From IMG/VR virus record IMGVR_UViG_2651869725_000022, positions 1-18,334 of that record: a stretch of 18,334 bases of DNA. The stretch is one strand, 5' to 3'. This stretch comes from a virus. Lineage: Duplodnaviria; Heunggongvirae; Uroviricota; Caudoviricetes. Made by a program: the position numbers and the translations under genes. A model generated the notes under the pieces. That model was not told where the DNA came from and searched no databases. It saw nothing but the letters and a program-made list of their open reading frames with translations. Of this stretch, positions 6,668-14,048 are shown one piece after another. The first letter of the stretch is position 1. Each line of letters opens with the position of its first letter.

Positions 6668-7057
6668 TCAGGCGGCTGCACCCGCCGTTTTCTCGTACTT
6701 ACTGATAGTGATCTCGATCTTCCCTCCCGGGATAACCGGTCCCCACTCAACCAGCATTCTTTTCACCTGACTGTCGTCTTCCCACACACCCGCGTGGGTC
6801 AGGGCGTCAAACAGCGCCTTGTTATAGTTGTCCAGATCGCGGATCCGGTTATCCGGAGGAAACAACACGATCTCCACTGAAGCAGGTGCCGACGTTGGTT
6901 TCGGCAGGCGACGTAACTGCTCAACTATTGCTGCGCACGCCGCGCTCTGGAATTTGCGCCCCGCTGCGCTTATCAGACTCTTACCAGCAAACGCCCCTTT
7001 GTTGGGGTGTCGCCAGTACGTGTTCACGCTGGGCGGGAAAGGCAAGATCAGCTTCAT
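6668..7057 (-). CDS. rusA: Holliday junction resolvase RusA
   Basis: 129 aa starting MKLILPFPPSVNTYWRH; conserved RusA N-terminal motif and acidic catalytic residues (DLDNY, DALT). 4-bp overlap with the upstream gene. Confidence 0.85.
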   Translation of the reverse strand: MKLILPFPPSVNTYWRHPNKGAFAGKSLISAAGRKFQSAACAAIVEQLRRLPKPTSAPASVEIVLFPPDNRIRDLDNYNKALFDALTHAGVWEDDSQVKRMLVEWGPVIPGGKIEITISKYEKTAGAAA

Positions 7058-7380
7058 ACTTTCAGGCCCCTCTCATGTAACCAGTGGGCTGCACGCAGCC
7101 TGCCGTTTTCCTCACCGGCAAGCAGTGCGCGGATAATCCCGACCGCCTCGCTGTCGTCGTCCTTCACCGCGGTATGAAGCGTTATCCCCCGGGCCACGCC
7201 ACGCTTTATCGTGATGACGCCTTTTTTCTCCAGTGCACGAAGATGCTCTACCGCTGCATTCACTGAACGGTATCCCAGCATGGTTGCCACCTCCTGATTG
7301 GTTGGCGGAAAGCCACGCTCTTTCTGATAAGAAATCAGCATATCCAGCACCTGCTGCTGGCATTGAGTTAACGTCGTCAT
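7054..7380 (-). CDS. LexA N-terminal DNA-binding domain homolog lacking the S24 peptidase domain
   Basis: 108 aa; residues about 3-70 align closely by eye with the E. coli LexA winged-helix domain (LTxxQQxVxDxI...GxPPTxxExAxxLGxRSxNAAxEHLxALxxKGVIxIxxGxxRGIxL). No Ala-Gly cleavage site or Ser/Lys dyad follows. ATGA overlap with the Dam gene stop. Confidence 0.6.
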   Translation of the reverse strand: MTTLTQCQQQVLDMLISYQKERGFPPTNQEVATMLGYRSVNAAVEHLRALEKKGVITIKRGVARGITLHTAVKDDDSEAVGIIRALLAGEENGRLRAAHWLHERGLKV

Positions 7381-8030
7381 GCCGCCATCTCCCTGACCAG
7401 TTTTTCCGCCTGCTGGCGAACCTGCGCCAGAAACGCCTCACCACATACCTCAAGTTCATCGCGCCCGATGTAGCTGATTGCCGGTCCCTTCCAGGTCTTA
7501 TCGAAAACAGCAATAGCACCAGCGAAGAAAGCGCCTGTCGGCACCTGCTTCTCATCCTTCGGGATAAACCAGGCAGGCAGTTCAAAACCAATACGCCCGC
7601 GAATAAAAGCAATATGGTCTGCATCTTCCGGCCACCACACTTCGCTGGTGGCAGCTTTGATCAGGAAAACATAGCGCCCACCCTTATCACGCATAGCACT
7701 GGCATGTTTCATGATGTAACGCATGCCGGTGATGTATTGCCCCTCATGCTGACTGGCGCGGCTGTATGGGGGATTACCAAAGGCAGCCCCTTTAAGCTCC
7801 GCAAGACGTTCTGACCAGTCATGCGCCAGCGCGTTGTCTTCCGCCGTGTAATACGCAGCACATTTGGCGTTATCACCGTCAGTGAACAGATCCAGAACAA
7901 ACGGGCCAAACAGGGTGTTAATTCCCCAGAAAATGTTGTCCGGCGTGCGCCACTGATCGCCCACTTCCTTCAGTTCATGGGCTGGTTTGTTCCGCAGCTC
8001 CACCAGCGCCCGGCAATATTTATTACTCAT
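7377..8030 (-). CDS. Phage DNA N6-adenine methyltransferase (Dam-like)
   Basis: Preferred start at 8030 (MSNKYC...), overlapping the upstream stop as TAATG. Contains the catalytic NPPY motif (FGNPPYSR) typical of N6-adenine/N4-cytosine methyltransferases. Confidence 0.7.
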   Translation of the reverse strand: MSNKYCRALVELRNKPAHELKEVGDQWRTPDNIFWGINTLFGPFVLDLFTDGDNAKCAAYYTAEDNALAHDWSERLAELKGAAFGNPPYSRASQHEGQYITGMRYIMKHASAMRDKGGRYVFLIKAATSEVWWPEDADHIAFIRGRIGFELPAWFIPKDEKQVPTGAFFAGAIAVFDKTWKGPAISYIGRDELEVCGEAFLAQVRQQAEKLVREMAA

Positions 8031-8524
8031 TAAGCCCCCACGTAATTCCCTGACAGATACCACTCTTCACCCGATGCAGCGCGCTTGCTGCTTTTCCGTA
8101 AGCACCGCTCACGATGCGCCAGAAAATTGTTTCGTTCTGGCTGGGAGTGGCTTTCACGGAATGCCGCCATCCACACGGTTGCAGCACGACGAAATAAGCC
8201 TCTTGACTCCAGTTCTTCAGCCTGGCGGGTCAGGCACAAAATCACCCGGGGATCGTTAGTGCCGACATAGAAATTGCGCACAGGTCTGGTTTCACGAACT
8301 GGTTGTGGTTCCGGCTCCCGCGCTCTCTCAGTCAGGCGCGGGAAATGTCTGCGTGTATCCCCTTCACAACGGTGAGCCACAGGCCCACTCTGACGTAACT
8401 TGCTTGCTGACTGCAGTACGCGCTGCCGTGAGTAACCTGCAAAAGCATCCGCAATGTCTCCGGAAGTACACCCCGGATGGGCTTCAATGAATTTCTGAAC
8501 GTCATTCAAAAGACTCATGATCAC
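8030..8524 (-). CDS. Putative transcriptional regulator (PerC-like C-terminal motif)
   Basis: 164 aa; the C-terminal LESRGLFRRAATVWMAAF resembles the PerC-family signature as I recall it. Translationally coupled to the O-like gene (4-bp overlap) and the Dam gene. Family call is tentative. Confidence 0.4.
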   Translation of the reverse strand: MIMSLLNDVQKFIEAHPGCTSGDIADAFAGYSRQRVLQSASKLRQSGPVAHRCEGDTRRHFPRLTERAREPEPQPVRETRPVRNFYVGTNDPRVILCLTRQAEELESRGLFRRAATVWMAAFRESHSQPERNNFLAHRERCLRKSSKRAASGEEWYLSGNYVGA

Positions 8525-9462
8525 CCCCTGAATCCTGCCGGGATCTGGCTGTAGTCCACGTTGTCGTAACTGGATTTGAAGTACGGGTCTTCGCGTTTTT
8601 CGGTGTACGTGCTGACGGACGGCGATAAGCGCAGGGAAAGCTCATCCCATTTTTCCCGCAGCTTCGACGGGCTGAGCACGTTACGGCACCAGAACGGATC
8701 GCGGCTGACGCGGCTGTACATCTCGCAGATTTGTTTGTGAGTACGACCATCCTGCACACACATCAGGCGAATTTCGTTTGCCCAGGCTGTCCAGTTCGGT
8801 TCTTTGGGACGAACCACCTCGCCGTCACATTCGGCAGCCTGCTCGTACAGGGCGATGATTTTTTTCCAGAGCCACTGTGCGCAGGTCAAATCATCCTGCG
8901 TCCCCCACTGGCGCTTTTTAGGGCTGAATACAACCGCATCAGGATGGCGAGTTAAAAAATCCTGTTCAGCCGTCTGCGTGTCCGGTTGCGAAGCGTCCGG
9001 ACGAGAAGGTTTTTTATCTGACGGATCATGTTTTGATTTTACTGACGGATCCCCGCCAGATTCTGACGGGTGAAAACCCGCTTTTTTGCCAGATTTCGAC
9101 GCATCAAATTTTGACGGGTCAGATTTTGATGCGTCAGATTTTGACGGGTCAGAATCTGACAGTTGAGAAAATGCCGCTGCCTGAAGCTTCGCAACGTTAA
9201 GCTGATAAACATTCGACGCATTGCGGTTACCCTGGCGACGCGCCTTACGCGTTAACCAGCCTTCTGCTTCCAGCCGTGCGATAGCCGTTCTGACGGTACT
9301 CATCCCCGCGCCAATCTGACGGGCAATGGTTTCAATTGATGGCCAGCACACACCTTCGTCATTACTGAAATCAGCCAGGCGGGCCATAATTGCCACGCTG
9401 GATAACTTCATGCCTGATGCAGCGCAACCATCCCATACATAGCCGGTTAATTTAGTGCTCAT
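8521..9462 (-). CDS. Replication initiator, lambda O-like (HTH N-terminal domain, iteron-encoded linker, O-type C-terminal domain)
   Basis: 313 aa. The C-terminal segment (WGTQDDLTCAQW...NWTAWANEIRLMCVQDGRTHKQICEMYSRVSRDPFWCRNVLSPSKLREKWDELS) closely parallels the lambda O C-terminal domain (WGTAEDLTAAEW...NFAGWANDIRLMRERDGRNHRDMCVLFRWACQDNFWSGNVLSPAKLRDKWTQLE) from memory. The central low-complexity SDSDPSKSDASKSDPSKFDASKSG is encoded by direct repeats. Confidence 0.8.
   Translation of the reverse strand: MSTKLTGYVWDGCAASGMKLSSVAIMARLADFSNDEGVCWPSIETIARQIGAGMSTVRTAIARLEAEGWLTRKARRQGNRNASNVYQLNVAKLQAAAFSQLSDSDPSKSDASKSDPSKFDASKSGKKAGFHPSESGGDPSVKSKHDPSDKKPSRPDASQPDTQTAEQDFLTRHPDAVVFSPKKRQWGTQDDLTCAQWLWKKIIALYEQAAECDGEVVRPKEPNWTAWANEIRLMCVQDGRTHKQICEMYSRVSRDPFWCRNVLSPSKLREKWDELSLRLSPSVSTYTEKREDPYFKSSYDNVDYSQIPAGFRG
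9016..9162. repeat. Iteron array (candidate replication origin) inside the O-like gene
   Basis: At least eight copies of a T(C/T)TGAC(G/A)G core; the last five are spaced at exactly 15 bp (cores at 9096, 9111, 9126, 9141, 9156; unit approx GTCAGATTTTGACGG), with further copies at 9018, 9042 and 9063. Moderately AT-rich stretch on the 3' side (8940-9015). Mirrors ori-lambda architecture within O. Confidence 0.6.
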
Positions 9463-9471
9463 GACCGACCT

Positions 9472-9810
9472 CTATTTCCCTGAATTTACGACGAAACTGT
9501 TCGAGCGGGCTGAAGCACTCATGCTCATAGCCTTCGCGGAGGTAGATAACTCGTTGTGTTTCCGGCTCCCAACGAATGACTCTGACGGGCACTCCGTAGT
9601 GATCTTTGAACCAGCGGTTAACTTGTCGCAAAGGACTGTCTCCTTCTGCCGGTTGAAATCACCCACAGCCCACTCAGCAAAGCTGTGGGTTACAATTTCC
9701 CTGTCACCTGGTACATTTACTGCATAGCAATACTCCACCTTCGCTTTTCCACCCGGTACAGGAAGCGCAATCAGTTGCGAGCGACGGTAGTGTGTTGTTA
9801 AACTGTTCAT
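9472..9810 (-). CDS. Hypothetical protein (112 aa), translationally coupled
   Basis: ATG at 9810 overlaps the upstream stop (ATGA) and has GGAG 9 nt upstream. No family recognised. An antisense ORF (9455-9727, plus strand) occupies the same DNA, so the coding strand is not fully certain. Confidence 0.35.
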
Positions 9811-10358
9811 GCGTTAGTTTCTCCACAGTCACGACACGCCACGGCGCCCGGAGCTGCACACTCGCGGGCGTCACTACTTTCTGAAACGCAAAAGATTTTG
9901 TAGACCAGTGCTGCATGCTCCTGCAGCTTCGAAATTGAGAGGTACAGCTCATCGTTAATTGCTGTCTTCTCATGCGGTTCCACTACACCGTCTTCAATTG
10001 CTGAACGAATCTGTTTTGAATAACTGCCGATCTGTTCAATGACTTCCAGCAGGCGTTGGTTGATATCGGCGTTGTCCACATCCTCGACGTCAGGAAGAGA
10101 CACAAAGACGCCATTTGCAGACTGCGCCACAGCATCAGCAATGAAGTGAGTGCCACCAGCACGCTGTAAAACCATTGCCCATCCCAGCGGGAAAATCTGA
10201 TCGCCATCTGCACGAAGGCGGTTGAATAAAGCGTTTTCTGTTACATCGAGCCAGTCAGCCGCTTCAGCGTAACCACCCGGCAACGCCGCGATAGTTTTTC
10301 TGACAGCTTTCACATACCACTTAGGCTGTTTTTCTACTTTCCAGTGATGCTTACCCAC
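9807..10358 (-). CDS. CII-like regulatory protein with extended C-terminal domain
   Basis: Preferred start is the GTG at 10358 (AAGGAG 6 nt upstream); the longer ORF to 10463 would overlap cro. The segment [39 protein letters not shown] parallels the lambda CII HTH region (TEKTAEAVGVDKSQISRWKRDWIPKFSMLLAVLE) from memory. Sits between cro and O as cII does. Confidence 0.45.
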
Positions 10359-10380
10359 GGCTATCTCCTTAAAACTGTGG

Positions 10381-10629
10381 TTACTTTTCATCTGATGAAT
10401 CTTTAATCTTTTGAAAAATATCTGGACGTAATTTTTCTTTTGATATGCCAGTGGTCTTTTCAATGAATATCGAGAGCTTTGCAGGGGGACGCTTTTCTCT
10501 GTTCAACCAGTTCCAGACATGTTGTTGCTTTACTAAATGACCGCTGCTGGCTGTGAGCTTCCGAGCCAATTCTGATTGACCACCAGCCAGAGCGATTGCC
10601 TCCGATAAGGCTAATTGCTCAGGTGTCAT
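10381..10629 (-). CDS. Cro-like repressor (YdaS/Cro-type HTH)
   Basis: 82 aa, divergent from the cI-like gene across a 135-bp operator region; AAGGAG RBS 6 nt upstream of the ATG. HTH-like segment LSEAIALAGGQSELARKLTASSGHLVKQ. Confidence 0.6.
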   Translation of the reverse strand: MTPEQLALSEAIALAGGQSELARKLTASSGHLVKQQHVWNWLNREKRPPAKLSIFIEKTTGISKEKLRPDIFQKIKDSSDEK

Positions 10630-10764: not shown

Positions 10765-11451
10765 GTGAAAACACTGGCAGAACGATTAAAGATAGGTAGA
10801 GAGAAAGCTGGCATGAGCCAAGCTCAACTAGCTGAAAAAATTGGACTTTCACAACAATCTGTAGCCAAAATAGAGAATGGCGAAACTCTACAACCGCGCA
10901 AAATTAAAGAAATTGCAAAAGTTTTAGGTGTATCACAAAAGTGGTTACAACTTGGTATTGAAGACAACGCATCCATACCTGATCTTGTTGTAAAAGAAGC
11001 AGAAAGCACCGCATTAGACCCCGATATTTTCGTAAACATCCCTGTTTTAGATGTCGAGTTATCGGCAGGTAATGGATGTCTGGCTGAAATAGTTGAATCA
11101 GCTATTGACTGGTTTCCGTTAAGAAGAGCAGATTTGAGAAAATCTGGCGTATGTGCATCTAATGCCAAGATCGTAAAAATATGGGGGAACAGTTTATTAC
11201 CGGTTCTCAATAATGGAGATCTTGTTGCCGTTGATATTTCTCAAACCGTTCCTATTCGTGATGGCGATCTTTATGCCATACGAGATGGTGTATTGCTAAG
11301 GGTTAAAATACTTATCAACTTACCTGACGGTGGCTTGATTCTTAGAAGCTTCAACAAAGATGAGTACCCAGATGAAATACTCACCTTTGAAGATAGACGA
11401 GCCAGAATTCATGTTATAGGTAGGGTATTCTGGTCATCGCGAACTTGGTAA
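10765..11451 (+). CDS. cI-type prophage repressor (HTH-XRE N-terminal domain plus S24 LexA-like autopeptidase domain)
   Basis: 228 aa starting at GTG 10765 (purine-rich RBS upstream). N-terminal HTH (MSQAQLAEKIGLSQQSVAKIENGE), candidate Ala-Gly cleavage site (LSAGNG), catalytic Ser (GNSL) and Lys (LRVK) in S24 arrangement. Confidence 0.85.
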   Translation: MKTLAERLKIGREKAGMSQAQLAEKIGLSQQSVAKIENGETLQPRKIKEIAKVLGVSQKWLQLGIEDNASIPDLVVKEAESTALDPDIFVNIPVLDVELSAGNGCLAEIVESAIDWFPLRRADLRKSGVCASNAKIVKIWGNSLLPVLNNGDLVAVDISQTVPIRDGDLYAIRDGVLLRVKILINLPDGGLILRSFNKDEYPDEILTFEDRRARIHVIGRVFWSSRTW

Positions 11452-12324
11452 TGCATCGAAAAGCATTTCTTCAGAAATAATTTTAAGTTTTGCACCATTA
11501 TCATCCCTATAAGATATAGCTTTTTCGATCTTCCTTCCGTGACTTGAGAATTTCCAATCACGGGAGGAAAGCGTCCCAATTACTAAAAAATCCAACTTTT
11601 GAGTAATTCCACTACTGATGTTCCCACCAGCATTTTTAATCAAATTTTCAACTACGGCTCTCTTTCCTGCAACAAAAGTGCCTGTAAGACAATAGGTTTT
11701 ACCCTCTAACTCTATCGAAGCCCCTACATCAATAGGCAGCCTGGTCGCCAAACCATCCACCACCCCACTTTCCAAGTCACATCCTGTGAAGTCTACTAAT
11801 GCCTTATGTAGAGTTAAACTCTCATCTTCAGTAATAACACCATCTTTAAGAATTTCCTTTACAAGTGCATAAAGTTTTTTTCCTGGGTAGTTGTTCTTCA
11901 AAGCTCCATTTTGCTCAAGCCACCAATTAAGATATCTTATTTCTTCTTGAGTTAAGTTCCGATCAGCAATTAATCCTTTACATAGTCCATTAAGTAAATG
12001 GACATCTACATCCTTGGAGTAAAAATCAATTTCAGGGATATCAAGAATTTCCCTCTGTATTTGGAGAAGGCTATTTTTAAGGTCATCACGTTCTTCTGAT
12101 GTGATTATTCCATCCGCAAGAATATCCGACACCCGTGCTGATAGACTTTTTATAACTCCATTATTGATAATCTGCTTTGCTTCAAGTAACCATGTATCTA
12201 AGTAAAGAACCTCCTCTTCACGGACAACTCCATCTGCAATGATTCCATCAATGATGCTAATCAAGTTAGCAAATAACTTGTCCCGGTTCTGTGTGTAATT
12301 AAAAGCGTAAAGCGCGTCTTCCAT
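11434..12324 (-). CDS. Accessory protein: four TerB-like helical repeats followed by a C-terminal BRCT domain
   Basis: 296 aa; GGAGG RBS 4 nt upstream of the ATG at 12324. Four repeats built on an acidic core (IADGVVREEEVLYL; LADGIITSEERDDL; IADRNLTQEEIRYL; LKDGVITEDESLTL). The C-terminal GKTYCLTGTF...GGNISSGITQKLDFLVIG...ISEEMLFDAL matches the BRCT pattern as seen in NAD-dependent ligase C-termini. AT-rich, convergent with cI and overlapping its 3' end by 18 bp. Confidence 0.65.
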   Translation of the reverse strand: MEDALYAFNYTQNRDKLFANLISIIDGIIADGVVREEEVLYLDTWLLEAKQIINNGVIKSLSARVSDILADGIITSEERDDLKNSLLQIQREILDIPEIDFYSKDVDVHLLNGLCKGLIADRNLTQEEIRYLNWWLEQNGALKNNYPGKKLYALVKEILKDGVITEDESLTLHKALVDFTGCDLESGVVDGLATRLPIDVGASIELEGKTYCLTGTFVAGKRAVVENLIKNAGGNISSGITQKLDFLVIGTLSSRDWKFSSHGRKIEKAISYRDDNGAKLKIISEEMLFDALPSSR

Positions 12325-13176: not shown

Positions 13177-13430
13177 TTGATTTTCCTTTTATGTATACGG
13201 ACTTAAAAGGATACCACCGAGCCTGAAGTGGTGAAAAGACAGGCACATAACAGCTAAGTATTTTCAACCAGAGAGAATCCTTAGCGTTGTGGTGAATGCG
13301 GCTCAGCGCACGCGGGTTAAGGTTGAGGCTGACAGTCGACCTTCTGTGGATACCCACCCGCCAGGTGTGCAACCTTCGCCAGGCACCGGGAGGCACCCGG
13401 CACCACAACTTTATGCTGTGTGTAGTCTTG

Positions 13431-13478
13431 GCGGTACCAGCTTGTACCCTTGCTTCCGGCTGGTACCGCTCTTTTTAC
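13431..13478 (+). terminator. Candidate intrinsic terminator inside the early-left operon (tL-like)
   Basis: Perfect 11-bp stem GCGGTACCAGC (13431-13441) / GCTGGTACCGC (13459-13469) with a 17-nt loop, followed by CTCTTTTTAC. The loop is large for a canonical terminator, hence moderate confidence. Confidence 0.45.
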
Positions 13479-13613
13479 AAAACAGAGAAGAGCATCACCG
13501 GACGACGGGCTCATAACCCAATCCACCCGGGCGGCTGCCACCGCAGGTGTTCTTCTCTGTTTTGTGGAGAAACCAACCGACCTTGCAGGGTCGATATGAT
13601 TAGGAGCAGCAAA

Positions 13614-14048
13614 ATGGCTAGCGAACGCAGTACTGATGTGCAGGCATTTATCGGGGAGCTGGACGGCGGCGTATTTGAAACCAAAATCGGCGCAGTTCTC
13701 AGTGAAGTCGCTTCCGGTGTGATGAACACGAAAACCAAAGGTAAGGTCTCACTCAACCTGGAAATCGAACCGTTTGATGAGAACCGTGTGAAAATCAAAC
13801 ACAAACTCTCATATGTTCGCCCGACTAACCGCGGGAAAATTTCCGAAGAAGACACCACCGAAACGCCGATGTATGTCAATCGCGGTGGTCGCCCGACTAA
13901 CCGCGGGAAAATTTCCGAAGAAGACACCACCGAAACGCCGATGTATGTCAATCGCGGTGGTCGCCTGACTATTCTGCAGGAAGACCAGGGACAATTACTG
14001 ACTCTTGCCGGTGAACCTGACGGAAAACTCCGCGCAGCAGGTCATTAA
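13614..14048 (+). CDS. Hypothetical protein (144 aa) containing a duplicated 24-aa segment
   Basis: Preferred start is the ATG at 13614 with AGGAG 7 nt upstream; the upstream part of the long ORF 13296-14048 is GC-rich and lacks an RBS. Contains the tandem repeat PTNRGKISEEDTTETPMYVNRGGR twice. Confidence 0.55.
   Translation: MASERSTDVQAFIGELDGGVFETKIGAVLSEVASGVMNTKTKGKVSLNLEIEPFDENRVKIKHKLSYVRPTNRGKISEEDTTETPMYVNRGGRPTNRGKISEEDTTETPMYVNRGGRLTILQEDQGQLLTLAGEPDGKLRAAGH
13821..13964. repeat. Perfect 72-bp tandem duplication (2 copies) inside the coding sequence
   Basis: Copy 1 at 13821-13892 and copy 2 at 13893-13964 are identical base for base. A degenerate partial third start (GCCTGACTATTC) follows. 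Confidence 0.9.

Follow-up and report, generated by a model that had tools for sequence, protein, structure and literature searches.

We consider it probable that the O-like initiator encoded in the window (the whole stretch of 18,334 nucleotides analyzed here) belongs to an "O-only" lambdoid module, in which it is the one replication protein that the phage itself supplies, and that its DnaT-like C-terminal tail docks the host DnaC-DnaB complex at an iteron origin. The O-only class itself is already known: according to a recent survey (Genome Res 2025; PMC12315714), an O homolog occurs alone in 34 of 314 lambdoid phages, whose replication "is not yet understood," and the survey leaves their mechanism open and makes no mention of the tail. 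The module described here likewise consists of an O homolog with no helicase or loader, in the window as well as in the SfII and LLS genomes. What constitutes a new lead is the DnaT-type tail and the way in which it tracks the loader gene.

The initiator is made up of three parts (Table 1), a winged-helix HTH_36 N-terminus, a disordered linker encoded by the iteron region and a lambda-O-like C-terminal domain, and in the PHROG scan it matched PHROG 391, "replication initiation O-like," over its full length (8e-136; residues 1 to 313 against profile positions 1 to 298 of 298). Its initial annotation as a chimeric O-like protein is borne out by both halves. Residues 166 to 277 align with lambda O at 39% identity (E = 9e-18), while residues 23 to 70 match Pfam HTH_36 (E = 4e-11) instead of Phage_rep_O (PF04492); no match to the latter was obtained at E ≤ 0.01 in the Pfam scan, in which lambda O itself matched at 5.7e-36. 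Weak Pfam matches of the N-terminus to DnaD_N (1.3e-3) and RP-C (4.6e-3) were also recorded. The AF2 model of this region consists of helices and a beta wing (block pLDDT 67 to 90), forming a winged helix over residues 1 to 99, and a Foldseek search of the full model against the PDB returned wHTH matches only (MarR/ArsR proteins and the RepA_N-type initiator 4pql/4pt7), with nothing informative for the C-terminal domain. That domain was modeled with a block pLDDT of 76 to 97, mostly above 88; it has the segments WANxIRLM, DGR.H and NVLSPxKLRxKW in common with lambda O, and a three-sequence alignment of the lambda-O-type C-terminal domain contains 34 invariant columns. Isolated C-terminal halves gave no Pfam match at E ≤ 10, and the C-terminal domain of lambda O is likewise without a Pfam model match. 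When the initiator, SfV orf39, YfdN and DUF4222 were scanned with NCBIfam, all matches were to HTH regulators and below threshold. PGAP names the initiator gene only "helix-turn-helix domain-containing protein."

Table 1. Features of the replication module, in window coordinates
Feature	Position	Strand	Evidence
O-like replication initiator gene	8521-9462	minus	ORF, 313 aa plus stop; full-length match to phrog_391
N-terminal winged-helix (HTH_36) domain, aa 1-99, presumed iteron-binding	9166-9462	minus	Pfam, AF2, Foldseek
Disordered Ser/Asp/Lys/Pro-rich linker, aa 100-160	8983-9165	minus	AF2 pLDDT <50 for aa 102-159; encoded by iteron region
Lambda-O-type helical C-terminal domain, aa 162-278	8629-8979	minus	Lambda O identity, alignments, AF2
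Disordered C-terminal tail, aa 281-313: PSVSTYTEKREDPYFKSSYDNVDYSQIPAGFRG	8524-8622	minus	Translation; AF2 block pLDDT 46-61
Tight iteron array, 15-bp spacing	9090-9164		TRF, direct-repeat families D1 and D2, motif search
Three spaced iterons and short interleaved A/T tracts	9017-9075		Motif search, comparison of relatives
YfdN/PerC-like gene, likely start ATG 8518	8030-8524	minus	Pfam PerC 8e-8; phrog_1324 "transcriptional activator"
DUF4222/YmfM-like gene, directly upstream of initiator	9472-9810	minus	phrog_1170 (unknown function); PGAP "DUF4222 domain-containing protein"

The presence of iterons inside the gene, also proposed initially, was corroborated. TRF reported a 15-bp period with 4.3 copies at 9090 to 9153 (score 86 to 100), and the iteron core was defined as TGAC-NN-GTCA (10 bp). 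Searching the plus strand of all 18.3 kb for TTTGACGGGTCA with up to two mismatches gave six matches, five of them within 9017 to 9151, a total count that was reached by none of 200 shuffles. The 15-bp periodicity that had been assigned to 9016 to 9162 holds for the tight array, which has good cores at 9112 to 9121, 9127 to 9136 and 9142 to 9151 with degenerate units on both sides, but not for the remaining part, where three copies (cores at 9019 to 9028, 9043 to 9052 and 9064 to 9073) are spaced 24 and 21 bp apart. The G+C minimum of the initiator gene (35%) is found at 9000 to 9039.

Several observations speak for real iterons rather than mere low complexity of the coding sequence. At the DNA level, the 48/33-21-24 bp spacing pattern is kept in all four relatives, and the iteron layout of the Klebsiella, Citrobacter and Yersinia relatives is the same as that of the window. 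The serines in D-x-S positions of the linker are encoded by TCA in 22 of 24 cases in the four relatives, compared with 24% TCA among the serine codons of neighboring genes. Finally, the motif was found together with the HTH_36 N-domain type in four genera and not in genes with other N-domains. On the basis of this co-occurrence, the N-domain may be taken to bind the iterons. Opening of the origin is presumed as well.

The very end of the protein is where the likeness to DnaT resides. The core of the tail, DYSQIPAGFRG, is encoded at 8524 to 8556 on the minus strand, and the terminal residues (...DNVDYSQIPAGFRG, followed by the stop) are identical to the C-terminus of DnaT at eight of nine positions, with SQIP[PA]GFRG-COOH in common. 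Homologs that are 57 to 60% identical to the window protein end in RCVNHISEPDTEIPPGFRG, 13 of 17 residues of which are identical to the DnaT end. The DnaT-like tail had been missed in the initial annotation. IPxGFRG is kept in DnaT orthologs down to ~32% identity and occurs on at least four unrelated initiator body types, 0 to 4 residues from the stop in all 120 viral loci among those listed; the tail-coding DNA differs from the dnaT 3' end at many synonymous positions, with the peptide kept. In genome contigs, the DY-type tail was matched only 11 times, with eight matches in Enterobacterales and three that may be due to chance.

Some initiators carry the full DnaT C-terminal domain in addition to the tail. 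The window's initiator showed no sign of the ssDNA-binding three-helix domain of DnaT (PF17948; no match at E ≤ 10, hhalign probability 0.4%) or of the N-terminal oligomerization/PriB-binding domain, its own N-terminus being a wHTH and a tblastn search with DnaT giving no match in the window. As hhalign comparisons among the lambda-O, SfV and mEp390 types and the DnaT C-terminal domain gave probabilities of ≤20%, we do not claim homology among the four C-terminal domain types; an HHpred link between lambda O and PF09524 is stated in PMC5509034. A literature search retrieved no account of the IPxGFRG motif or its function, and in the 2014 and 2026 papers on DnaT structure residues 154 to 179 are covered only by a modest effect on cooperativity. 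That the extreme C-terminus of an initiator can be essential follows from lambda O, of which a mutant without the last five residues is null (PMC6022878).

Tail types were then set against loader types in viral-contig loci with at least 1.5 kb of downstream sequence. Among the matches listed, a lambda P homolog was located downstream in 188 of 189 loci with WNxx[DE]xW-type tails, as in lambda O, namely in 91 of 92 with NTDWIxGV tails (lambda O type) and in 97 of 97 with HWNSPEGW tails. Here as in the counts that follow, raw numbers overstate independence because the sample is dominated by closely related enterobacterial prophages. DnaC accompanied none of the 189 P-type tails listed. Conversely, the 190 listed loci with IPxGFRG tails included none with P, 58 with a close DnaC homolog and 132 with no loader. 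All of these DnaC homologs (47 to 50% identical to DnaC, starting 0 to 100 nt downstream) follow the terminal PDxxIPxGFRG subtype, for which 40 further listed loci have no loader and none has P, while the DYSxIPxGFRG subtype was without a loader in 92 of 92 loci among the matches listed. A fourth tail type, DYGxTE[IM]PxWA, was followed by a distant DnaC-like loader in all 91 listed loci. The reverse comparison gave the same picture, with an ORF ending in IPxGFRG preceding 73 of the 74 phage dnaC-like genes listed. When listed matches were clustered at 70% identity, nine clusters of type i without P stood against 33 of types ii and iii with P, without exception; at 50% identity, one cluster combined similar bodies with mixed tails, and P tracked the tail.

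The host chromosome has the same gene pairing, tail first and loader second, in E. coli dnaT-dnaC, and in Rac ydaU (ending in VNTVSLPDSAIPPGFRG) is followed by ydaV, 50% identical to DnaC. What counts against reading the tail of the window protein in this way is that, among the matches listed, its DY subtype never occurs beside a phage DnaC and has only the last seven to nine residues in common with the DnaC-linked subtype. The premise that a lambda-O-like globular domain implies a P partner fails; within the same domain family P follows the last ~10 to 25 residues instead.

The window contains no P, DnaC or DnaB homolog, as judged from tblastn and from Pfam/PHROG scans of the listed ORFs, in agreement with the initial annotation. 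The partner P gene (PF06992) expected directly downstream of the initiator is absent from the window, and no P is present in the SfII and LLS genomes. Likewise, none of the queries lambda P, DnaC and DnaB gave a tblastn match in the 120 tail-bearing viral loci listed (1.21 Mb), while controls did match. In its distribution the gene family is nothing unusual. The initiator gene is present over at least 80% of its length in 1,576 of 5,426 complete E. coli genomes (29%), and the same module occurs in Shigella serotype-converting phages and, with an SfV-type initiator bearing the same tail, in Stx2 phages.

The window covers only 18 kb of the prophage, and the initial annotation had accordingly offered, besides direct recruitment of the host loader, an ordinary architecture with the loader encoded elsewhere or a defective module. 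Both can hardly be credited now. The complete SfII genome, whose module is 97.5% identical to that of the window, and the complete LLS genome contain no lambda P, DnaC or DnaB match in tblastn even at E ≤ 0.1, with positive controls matching. The module is found at 97 to 100% identity in complete genomes of isolated phages (SfII and SfIV), the protein being 100% identical in phage vB_EcoM-720R4 and 99% in SfIV; E. coli K-12 supports plaque formation by LLS, a sequenced phage with the same N domain and iterons in its O protein; and the O-only type makes up 34 of the 314 lambdoid phages in the survey (PMC12315714). The original description therefore stands, two of its three explanations do not, and the evidence favors, indirectly, the third, direct recruitment of the host loader by the initiator. 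A phage loader of an unrecognized kind was also considered, with YfdN, which has a winged-helix-like N-terminal half and sits in the position of P, or DUF4222 acting as a nonhomologous loader or adaptor. The PerC-like gene that had been noted directly downstream (8030 to 8524) was confirmed as such (Pfam PerC, E = 8e-8); a YfdN-like gene occupies this P/DnaC slot directly after DYSxIPxGFRG-tailed initiators in 90 of 92 viral-contig loci among the matches listed, the PHROG to which its N-terminal half belongs has no known function, and replacement of loaders by nonhomologous ones is known (PMC5509034 and the title of PMC11087808). However, YfdN is missing after the tail-bearing initiators of the plaque-forming LLS, mEp390, phiNP and two Klebsiella phages, where the next gene is a methyltransferase or LexA-DBD-like gene; it follows only 1 of the 40 listed PDxxIPxGFRG initiators without DnaC; and its family matches are PerC/ANR-type transcription regulators only, which together make such a loader highly improbable. 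With the gene absent from these five phages, YfdN was dropped as a P analogue in any general explanation. It is probably not part of the replication machinery, although a role in the DY-tail lineage is possible because it nearly always follows that subtype (90 of 92, among the matches listed). DUF977, encoded 3' of DnaC-less initiators, was dropped as a replacement loader because it is also present in modules with DnaC.

Two further explanations concern the tail itself. It might be unconnected to helicase loading (a degron, for example, or another host contact), its association with loaders reflecting shared ancestry of recombination modules. The SfV-type and SfII-type initiators of E. coli phages are indeed alike only in the tail and are both followed by the same yfdN-dam genes, a tail-only likeness that would result if mosaic exchange had its junction close to the 3' end of the initiator gene, and the samples are phylogenetically clumped. 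Nevertheless, the tail persists despite different downstream genes and in the cellular DnaT of distant orthologs; among the matches listed, each of four tail classes goes, over many initiator clusters, with a single loader class, and bodies more than 50% identical bear different tails, with P present or absent to match. Shared ancestry alone is, in our view, quite improbable. We also regard as unlikely, if less so, that the DnaT-like tail recruits the restart primosome by docking PriA (or PriB) at the opened origin, whereupon PriA-PriB-DnaT would load DnaB from DnaB-DnaC, comparable to what happens at phiX174 pas sites, in ColE1-type plasmids and in phage Mu. In cryo-EM structures from 2026, the C-terminal domain of DnaT contacts PriA HD2/CTD by way of a small hydrophobic interface that is conserved, and because the text does not name the DnaT residues involved, the hydrophobic IPPGF tail could belong to it. 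Moreover, some initiators possess the whole DnaT C-terminal domain with the tail, and the O-only phage LLS needs RecBCD/Chi recombination, the intermediates of which are processed by restart pathways. Yet a PriA-binding peptide would leave the strict pairing of tail and loader without a reason: among the matches listed, P was seen with none of the IPxGFRG tails (0 of 190) and DnaC with none of the P-type tails (0 of 189), and the other tail always goes with the other DnaC-like subfamily (91 of 91). In addition, the order of a tail-bearing protein followed by a DnaC-type gene recurs in the host, in Rac and in phages.

In the reading that we prefer, docking of the host DnaC-DnaB complex by the tail, the winged-helix N-domain would bind, as dimers, to the TGAC-NN-GTCA iterons within the linker-coding part of its own gene, giving an O-some-like complex beside the short A/T tracts. 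Instead of passing the origin on to a phage-encoded loader like lambda P, the initiator would present a flexible peptide ending in IPxGFRG-COOH, the same end as that of host DnaT and Rac YdaU, both encoded directly upstream of a DnaC-type loader gene. Once the origin is open, this peptide would dock DnaC-DnaB there (DnaC itself or the complex), and under this proposal a phage loader gene is therefore not needed. The sequence data thus suggest that the initiator may call in the host loader via its DnaT-like end; a physical contact between tail and DnaC/DnaB is proposed here from gene association. Against such a contact, no DnaT-DnaC interaction is documented in the accessible literature (PMC5778457). 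In the 2026 preprimosome paper the C-terminal domain of DnaT sits on PriA, and recruitment of DnaB/DnaC is proposed to be the work of the N-terminal domain rather than of the tail.

A more general reading is offered tentatively, and we would give it slightly less than an even chance. IPxGFRG-COOH would be a portable docking motif for DnaC-type loaders, shared by DnaT, YdaU and many phage initiators, and part of a "tail code" in which the last 10 to 25 residues, not the globular C-terminal domain, set the loader engaged: WNxx[DE]xW for lambda P, IPxGFRG for E. coli-type DnaC and DYGxTE[IM]PxWA for the distant DnaC-like family. O-only phages such as the window prophage would then replicate by showing the DnaT tail at the origin. 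If true, the IPxGFRG peptide would also supply what is missing from accounts of how DnaB-DnaC is brought in by the PriA-PriB-DnaT preprimosome, a step that "remains unknown" according to the 2026 structural paper. Here the phage data direct attention to the C-terminal tail of DnaT, which is conserved but has gone undiscussed. Helicase loading in O-only phages (34 of 314 in the published panel, with the gene in 29% of complete E. coli genomes) becomes testable with one peptide, and recruitment by the preprimosome with the same one. A rule linking initiator tail and loader would also improve the annotation of such genes and allow prediction of the host factors on which prophages depend, Stx-converting prophages among them.

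Compared with known systems, the module shares with lambda O-P a two-domain initiator, a disordered linker and iterons in the linker-coding part of the gene, followed by A/T-rich DNA. The C-terminal globular domains are homologous (39%, E = 9e-18), and the extreme C-terminus is critical in lambda. On the other hand, lambda has four 18-bp iterons where the window has 10-bp TGAC-NN-GTCA cores at 15-, 21- and 24-bp spacing, a P gene, and a tail (NTDWIYGVDL) that contrasts with the DnaT-type IPxGFRG. The plasmid initiators pSC101 RepA, R6K pi and RK2 TrfA are winged-helix iteron binders that use host DnaB-DnaC without a loader of their own; DnaA is a further requirement for them, their contacts with DnaB are made by globular surfaces, and we know of no DnaT-like tail in them. 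Phage LLS, a member of the same O-only class, has the same N-domain and iteron-coded linker and likewise ends in IPxGFRG (KFGPVDTKIPEGFRG), and its genome encodes neither loader nor helicase, but it differs in its C-terminal globular domain (mEp390/TIGR02220-like) and has no YfdN gene.

E. coli DnaT carries the same C-terminal peptide, and its gene immediately precedes one for a DnaC-type loader, an order also seen in the phage initiator-dnaC pairs; unlike the window protein, however, it has its own N-terminal domain and PF17948, and it is targeted to forks by PriA/PriB, whereas the window protein would presumably be brought to the iterons by its own HTH. The O-DnaC modules of Rac (YdaU-YdaV), phiSTEC1589-Stx1c, FSL SP-016 and ST974-OXA48phi18.2 have initiators ending in PDxxIPxGFRG, with DUF1376-type or other N-terminal parts, and their own DnaC homolog (~50% identical to host DnaC); relative to this architecture, the module of the window lacks only the phage dnaC copy. 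The DopC-DopE system (Brezellec 2017; PMC5509034) is cellular rather than phage-encoded, with a DnaT C-terminal domain, a P-like loader partner and no iterons, but, like the window protein, DopC joins an O-like HTH_36 protein to a DnaT-related C-terminal element, so that O-like N-domains and DnaT-like C-termini have evidently been shuffled.

The O-like gene encodes a chimeric initiator, and all the elements on which the initial annotation had based that description were recovered: a foreign helix-turn-helix (HTH) N terminus, a lambda-O-like C-terminal domain, iterons, a PerC neighbor, and no helicase loader. The N terminus belongs to Pfam HTH_36 (E = 4e-11) and, in a Pfam scan, did not match Phage_rep_O, the N-terminal family of lambda O; residues 166 to 277 share 39% identity with lambda O (E = 9e-18), and over its full length the protein matches phrog_391, "replication initiation O-like" (8e-136). 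An AlphaFold2 model, with 42 homologs as input, shows a winged helix (residues 1 to 99), a disordered linker (residues 102 to 159; pLDDT of <50), a confident helical domain (residues 162 to 278), and a disordered tail (residues 280 to 313); a Foldseek search with it returned winged-helix proteins only, one of them a RepA_N-type plasmid initiator. The product belongs to the O-like initiators (phrog_391) and to the O-only class already in print, lambdoid modules with an O homolog and without a loader (PMC12315714); it is not a DnaT, and its N-domain places it outside the Pfam family of lambda O.

The window corresponds to the early region of a lambdoid E. coli prophage similar to SfII/SfV. In its rightward operon the YfdN/PerC-like gene is followed by Dam, a LexA-DBD-like gene, RusA, KilA-N, DUF968/HNH, and Q; genes for a 5'-deoxynucleotidase, a DnaQ-like exonuclease, and products without assigned function make up the leftward side. 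Positions 7000 to 10370 share 97.5% identity with Shigella phage SfII and with several E. coli phage isolates, and the initiator is 100% identical to a protein of vB_EcoM-720R4 and 99% identical to one of phage SfIV. In its distribution the gene is ordinary: at least 80% of it is present in 1,576 of 5,426 complete E. coli genomes, where PGAP labels it only "helix-turn-helix domain-containing protein." As a side observation, the C-terminal part of the open reading frame (ORF) adjoining cI has weak matches to NAD-dependent DNA ligase families and is possibly BRCT-like; this ORF could be a candidate lysogeny-expressed moron or exclusion gene.

Features of the window, with strand and remarks
Feature	Position	Strand	Remarks
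ORF	13296-14048		Two stretches match PHROGs without assigned function (phrog_204, phrog_17027)
Tandem repeat	13817-13971		72 bp, 2.2 copies, 98% identity (TRF score 303); within ORF 13296-14048
296-aa ORF	11434-12324	-	Adjoins cI, opposite orientation; full-length match to phrog_3989 (no assigned function)
cI	10765-11451	+	ORF calling and family scans
cro-like gene	10381-10629	-	Rightward operon
CII/YmfL-like gene	9807-10463	-	Rightward operon
DUF4222/YmfM-like gene	9472-9810	-	Rightward operon; between CII/YmfL-like and O-like genes
O-like gene	8521-9462	-	Rightward operon
YfdN/PerC-like gene	8030-8524	-	Rightward operon; directly after O-like gene
TCTGACGG half-site-like copies	9585-9597		In DUF4222 gene, upstream
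TCTGACGG half-site-like copies	9290-9326		In HTH-coding part of initiator gene, e.g., 9315-9326, TCTGACGGGCAA
Tandem array (TRF)	9090-9153		Period 15 bp, 4.3 copies
Good iteron cores	9112-9121, 9127-9136, 9142-9151		15-bp spacing; degenerate units on both flanks
Three more iteron cores	9064-9073, 9043-9052, 9019-9028		Short A/T tracts in between
G+C minimum of O-like gene	9000-9039		35%

Both tblastn and family scans of the window agreed with the initial annotation in finding no homolog of lambda P, DnaC, or DnaB, which is what "no loader" means here. That the loader might lie outside the window, as had been proposed, is contradicted by complete genomes: the annotation of SfII (41.5 kb) includes no helicase or loader, tblastn of that genome with P, DnaC, and DnaB gave no match even at E ≤ 0.1 (the positive controls lambda, Rac, and phiSTEC1589 gave strong matches), and no loader was found in the genome of LLS, a sequenced O-only phage. 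Nor does a defective module, another of the proposals, agree with LLS, which forms plaques on E. coli K-12 with an O protein of this kind. Since both genomes lack a loader and LLS is plaque forming, the window module restates the O-only replication problem already in print.

The initiator ends in REDPYFKSSYDNVDYSQIPAGFRG; eight of its last nine residues are identical to those of E. coli DnaT, and both sequences run to the stop. Homologs with 57 to 60% identity to it end in RCVNHISEPDTEIPPGFRG (13 of 17 residues identical to DnaT), and in DnaT itself IPxGFRG is among the best-conserved stretches, retained in orthologs as distant as about 32% identity. The same tail also ends initiators with unrelated bodies (SfV orf39/ST64B sb42, mEp390 gp42, and Klebsiella ST147 phi7.2) and proteins bearing a true DnaT C-terminal domain; hhalign found no relationship among the C-terminal domain types of the tail-bearing initiators. 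All of the at least 120 IMG/VR matches to DYSxIPxGFRG, the window's type, were in frame and 0 to 4 residues from the stop. Because many synonymous positions distinguish the tail-coding DNA from dnaT, the peptide has been kept by selection and not by recent DNA transfer. Neither this peptide nor its correlation with the type of loader was described in the literature searched, an incomplete library, so that an earlier account may exist elsewhere. Separately, the Yersinia phage YeP3 initiator (locus L329, 3001 to 4484) has the N-domain and iterons of the window protein yet ends in KECSQRVSGEIAA, which matches none of the recognized tails; the next ORF (156 aa) has only a weak phrog_60 match, and the record may contain a frameshift.

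Tail class is strictly paired with loader class, and the window's initiator combines an HTH, in-gene iterons, and a flexible DnaT-type tail with no phage loader. Viral contigs were scanned for five C-terminal motifs (at least 120 IMG/VR matches each, mostly enterobacterial prophages), and the 4 kb downstream was searched by tblastn, the census being restricted to loci whose downstream sequence extended for 1.5 kb or more; since the motifs were drawn from few sequences and then searched exactly, variant tails are undersampled. Among the matches listed, no loader followed DYSxIPxGFRG (92/92 loci). The DnaT-identical type, PDxxIPxGFRG at the stop, preceded a DnaC homolog at 58 of 98 loci, no loader at 40, and P at none; the subtype adjoining phage DnaC has only the last 7 to 9 residues in common with the window's tail. 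These DnaC homologs (47 to 50% identity with E. coli DnaC) start 0 to 100 nt past the stop. Again among the matches listed, a lambda P homolog followed the lambda O ending, NTDWIxG[VI], at 91 of 92 loci (the remaining one is a 10-codon chance ORF), P followed HWNSPE[GA]W at 97 of 97, and a distant DnaC-like loader (31 to 36% identity) followed DYGxTE[IM]PxWA at 91 of 91. The non-DnaT tails seen on phage initiators of IMG/VR loci (L208-L327, L341-L460, and L667-L786), namely, NTDWIxGV, HWNSPEGWxxFL, and ENFAxKDYGQTE[IM]PxWA[RQ][DE], each lie 1 to 10 residues from the stop, with one loader family apiece among the matches listed.

The pairing also held in reverse, an ORF ending in IPxGFRG preceding 73 of 74 phage dnaC-like genes among the matches listed, as it does in the isolated phages phiSTEC1589-Stx1c, Salmonella FSL SP-016, and Klebsiella ST974-OXA48phi18.2, where such an initiator lies directly upstream of a DnaC homolog. 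Globular domains of the lambda O type carry either tail, and P tracks the tail (60 versus 92 loci among the matches listed). When the listed initiators were clustered at 70% identity, P accompanied 0 of 9 DnaT-tail clusters and 33 of 33 lambda-type clusters, a perfect split of 42 clusters, for which we calculate a hypergeometric probability of roughly 2e-9; when the cutoff was 50% identity, the listed matches included one cluster of similar bodies with mixed tails, in which the presence or absence of P matched the tail. The lambda mutant Oam29, whose product has 294 of 299 residues, is null, yet a 76-residue tag can be added to O (PMC6022878); this phenotype is independent experimental support for the importance of such tails.

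The neighbor reported as PerC-like does contain a PerC domain (E = 8e-8). As the missing loader it was rejected because it does not follow the tail-bearing initiators in LLS, mEp390, phiNP, and two Klebsiella phages, where a methyltransferase or LexA-DBD-like gene comes next. Among the matches listed, a YfdN/PerC-like gene came next after DYSxIPxGFRG initiators at 90 of 92 viral loci, after DnaC-less PDxxIPxGFRG initiators at only 1 of 40, and never after P- or DnaC-partnered initiators; the linkage may reflect common descent or a function bound to the tail subtype. A DUF977 gene (PHROG "Ren-like exclusion protein") followed 32 of the 40 listed DnaC-less initiators with the DnaT-identical tail (L465 and 31 similar loci), and in phiSTEC1589 a member of this family lies downstream of DnaC and YdaW.

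The iteron array suspected at 9016 to 9162 was confirmed by tandem-repeat finding, its core being an imperfect palindrome, TGAC-NN-GTCA. That these repeats are only coding low complexity is contradicted by codon bias and by their conserved layout in relatives. A layout of 3 to 5 units at 15 bp, a 33- to 48-bp gap, and subsequent intervals of 21 and 24 bp recurs in the initiator genes from Klebsiella phage 1 LV-2017, Citrobacter phiNP, and YeP3, whose products have the window protein's N-domain; the motif was not found in initiator genes that encode another N-domain (SfV, ST64B, mEp390, Klebsiella ST147 phi7.2, and lambda). YeP3 has an inverted central dinucleotide (GG in place of CC), which alters the amino acid and retains the half-sites, and the serines of D-x-S are encoded by TCA in 22 of 24 cases over four initiator genes (24% TCA in neighboring genes). 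We predict that the N-domain binds the iterons and that the array functions as an origin. The additional TCTGACGG-like copies are inside the chance range at three mismatches.

It seems to us fairly probable that the initiator acts from its iterons with its tail docking the host DnaC-DnaB complex. Every mechanistic step past sequence anatomy is one that we infer: the N-domain would assemble on the iterons and open adjacent DNA, and the tail would then engage DnaC-DnaB as the lambda O tail would dock P-DnaB, the module having presumably dispensed with a phage DnaC copy in favor of host DnaC, about 50% identical to the phage copies. As the main alternative, the tail could bind PriA or a PriA-PriB complex and so bring in the restart primosome, in line with 2026 cryo-EM work in which the C-terminal domain of DnaT sits on PriA; a PriA-binding peptide, which we think unlikely, would leave the covariation of tail and loader classes unaccounted for. 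The same work suggests that the DnaT N-terminal domain recruits DnaB-DnaC by a mechanism that "remains unknown," and its text does not describe the DnaT tail.

Among known systems, the Rac prophage of E. coli K-12 (locus L666, 1620 to 3230) encodes YdaU, which ends in LLRQVNTVSLPDSAIPPGFRG/VNTVSLPDSAIPPGFRG, a near-copy of the DnaT C terminus, and, next in order, YdaV, which shares 50% identity with DnaC. The arrangement mirrors the host dnaT-dnaC operon, so that K-12 has two parallel pairs of a tail protein and a DnaC-type gene, which would fit a phage origin of dnaT-dnaC. Modules of the ydaU-ydaV type have their own DnaC copy, whereas the window's module has none. DopC, an O-like HTH_36 protein with a DnaT C-terminal domain, adjoins a P-like gene (Brezellec et al. 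2017, PMC5509034), so that the exchange of parts between O-like and DnaT-like proteins is already known. The O protein of LLS shares its N-domain and iteron-coded linker with the window protein, in a genome likewise without a loader.
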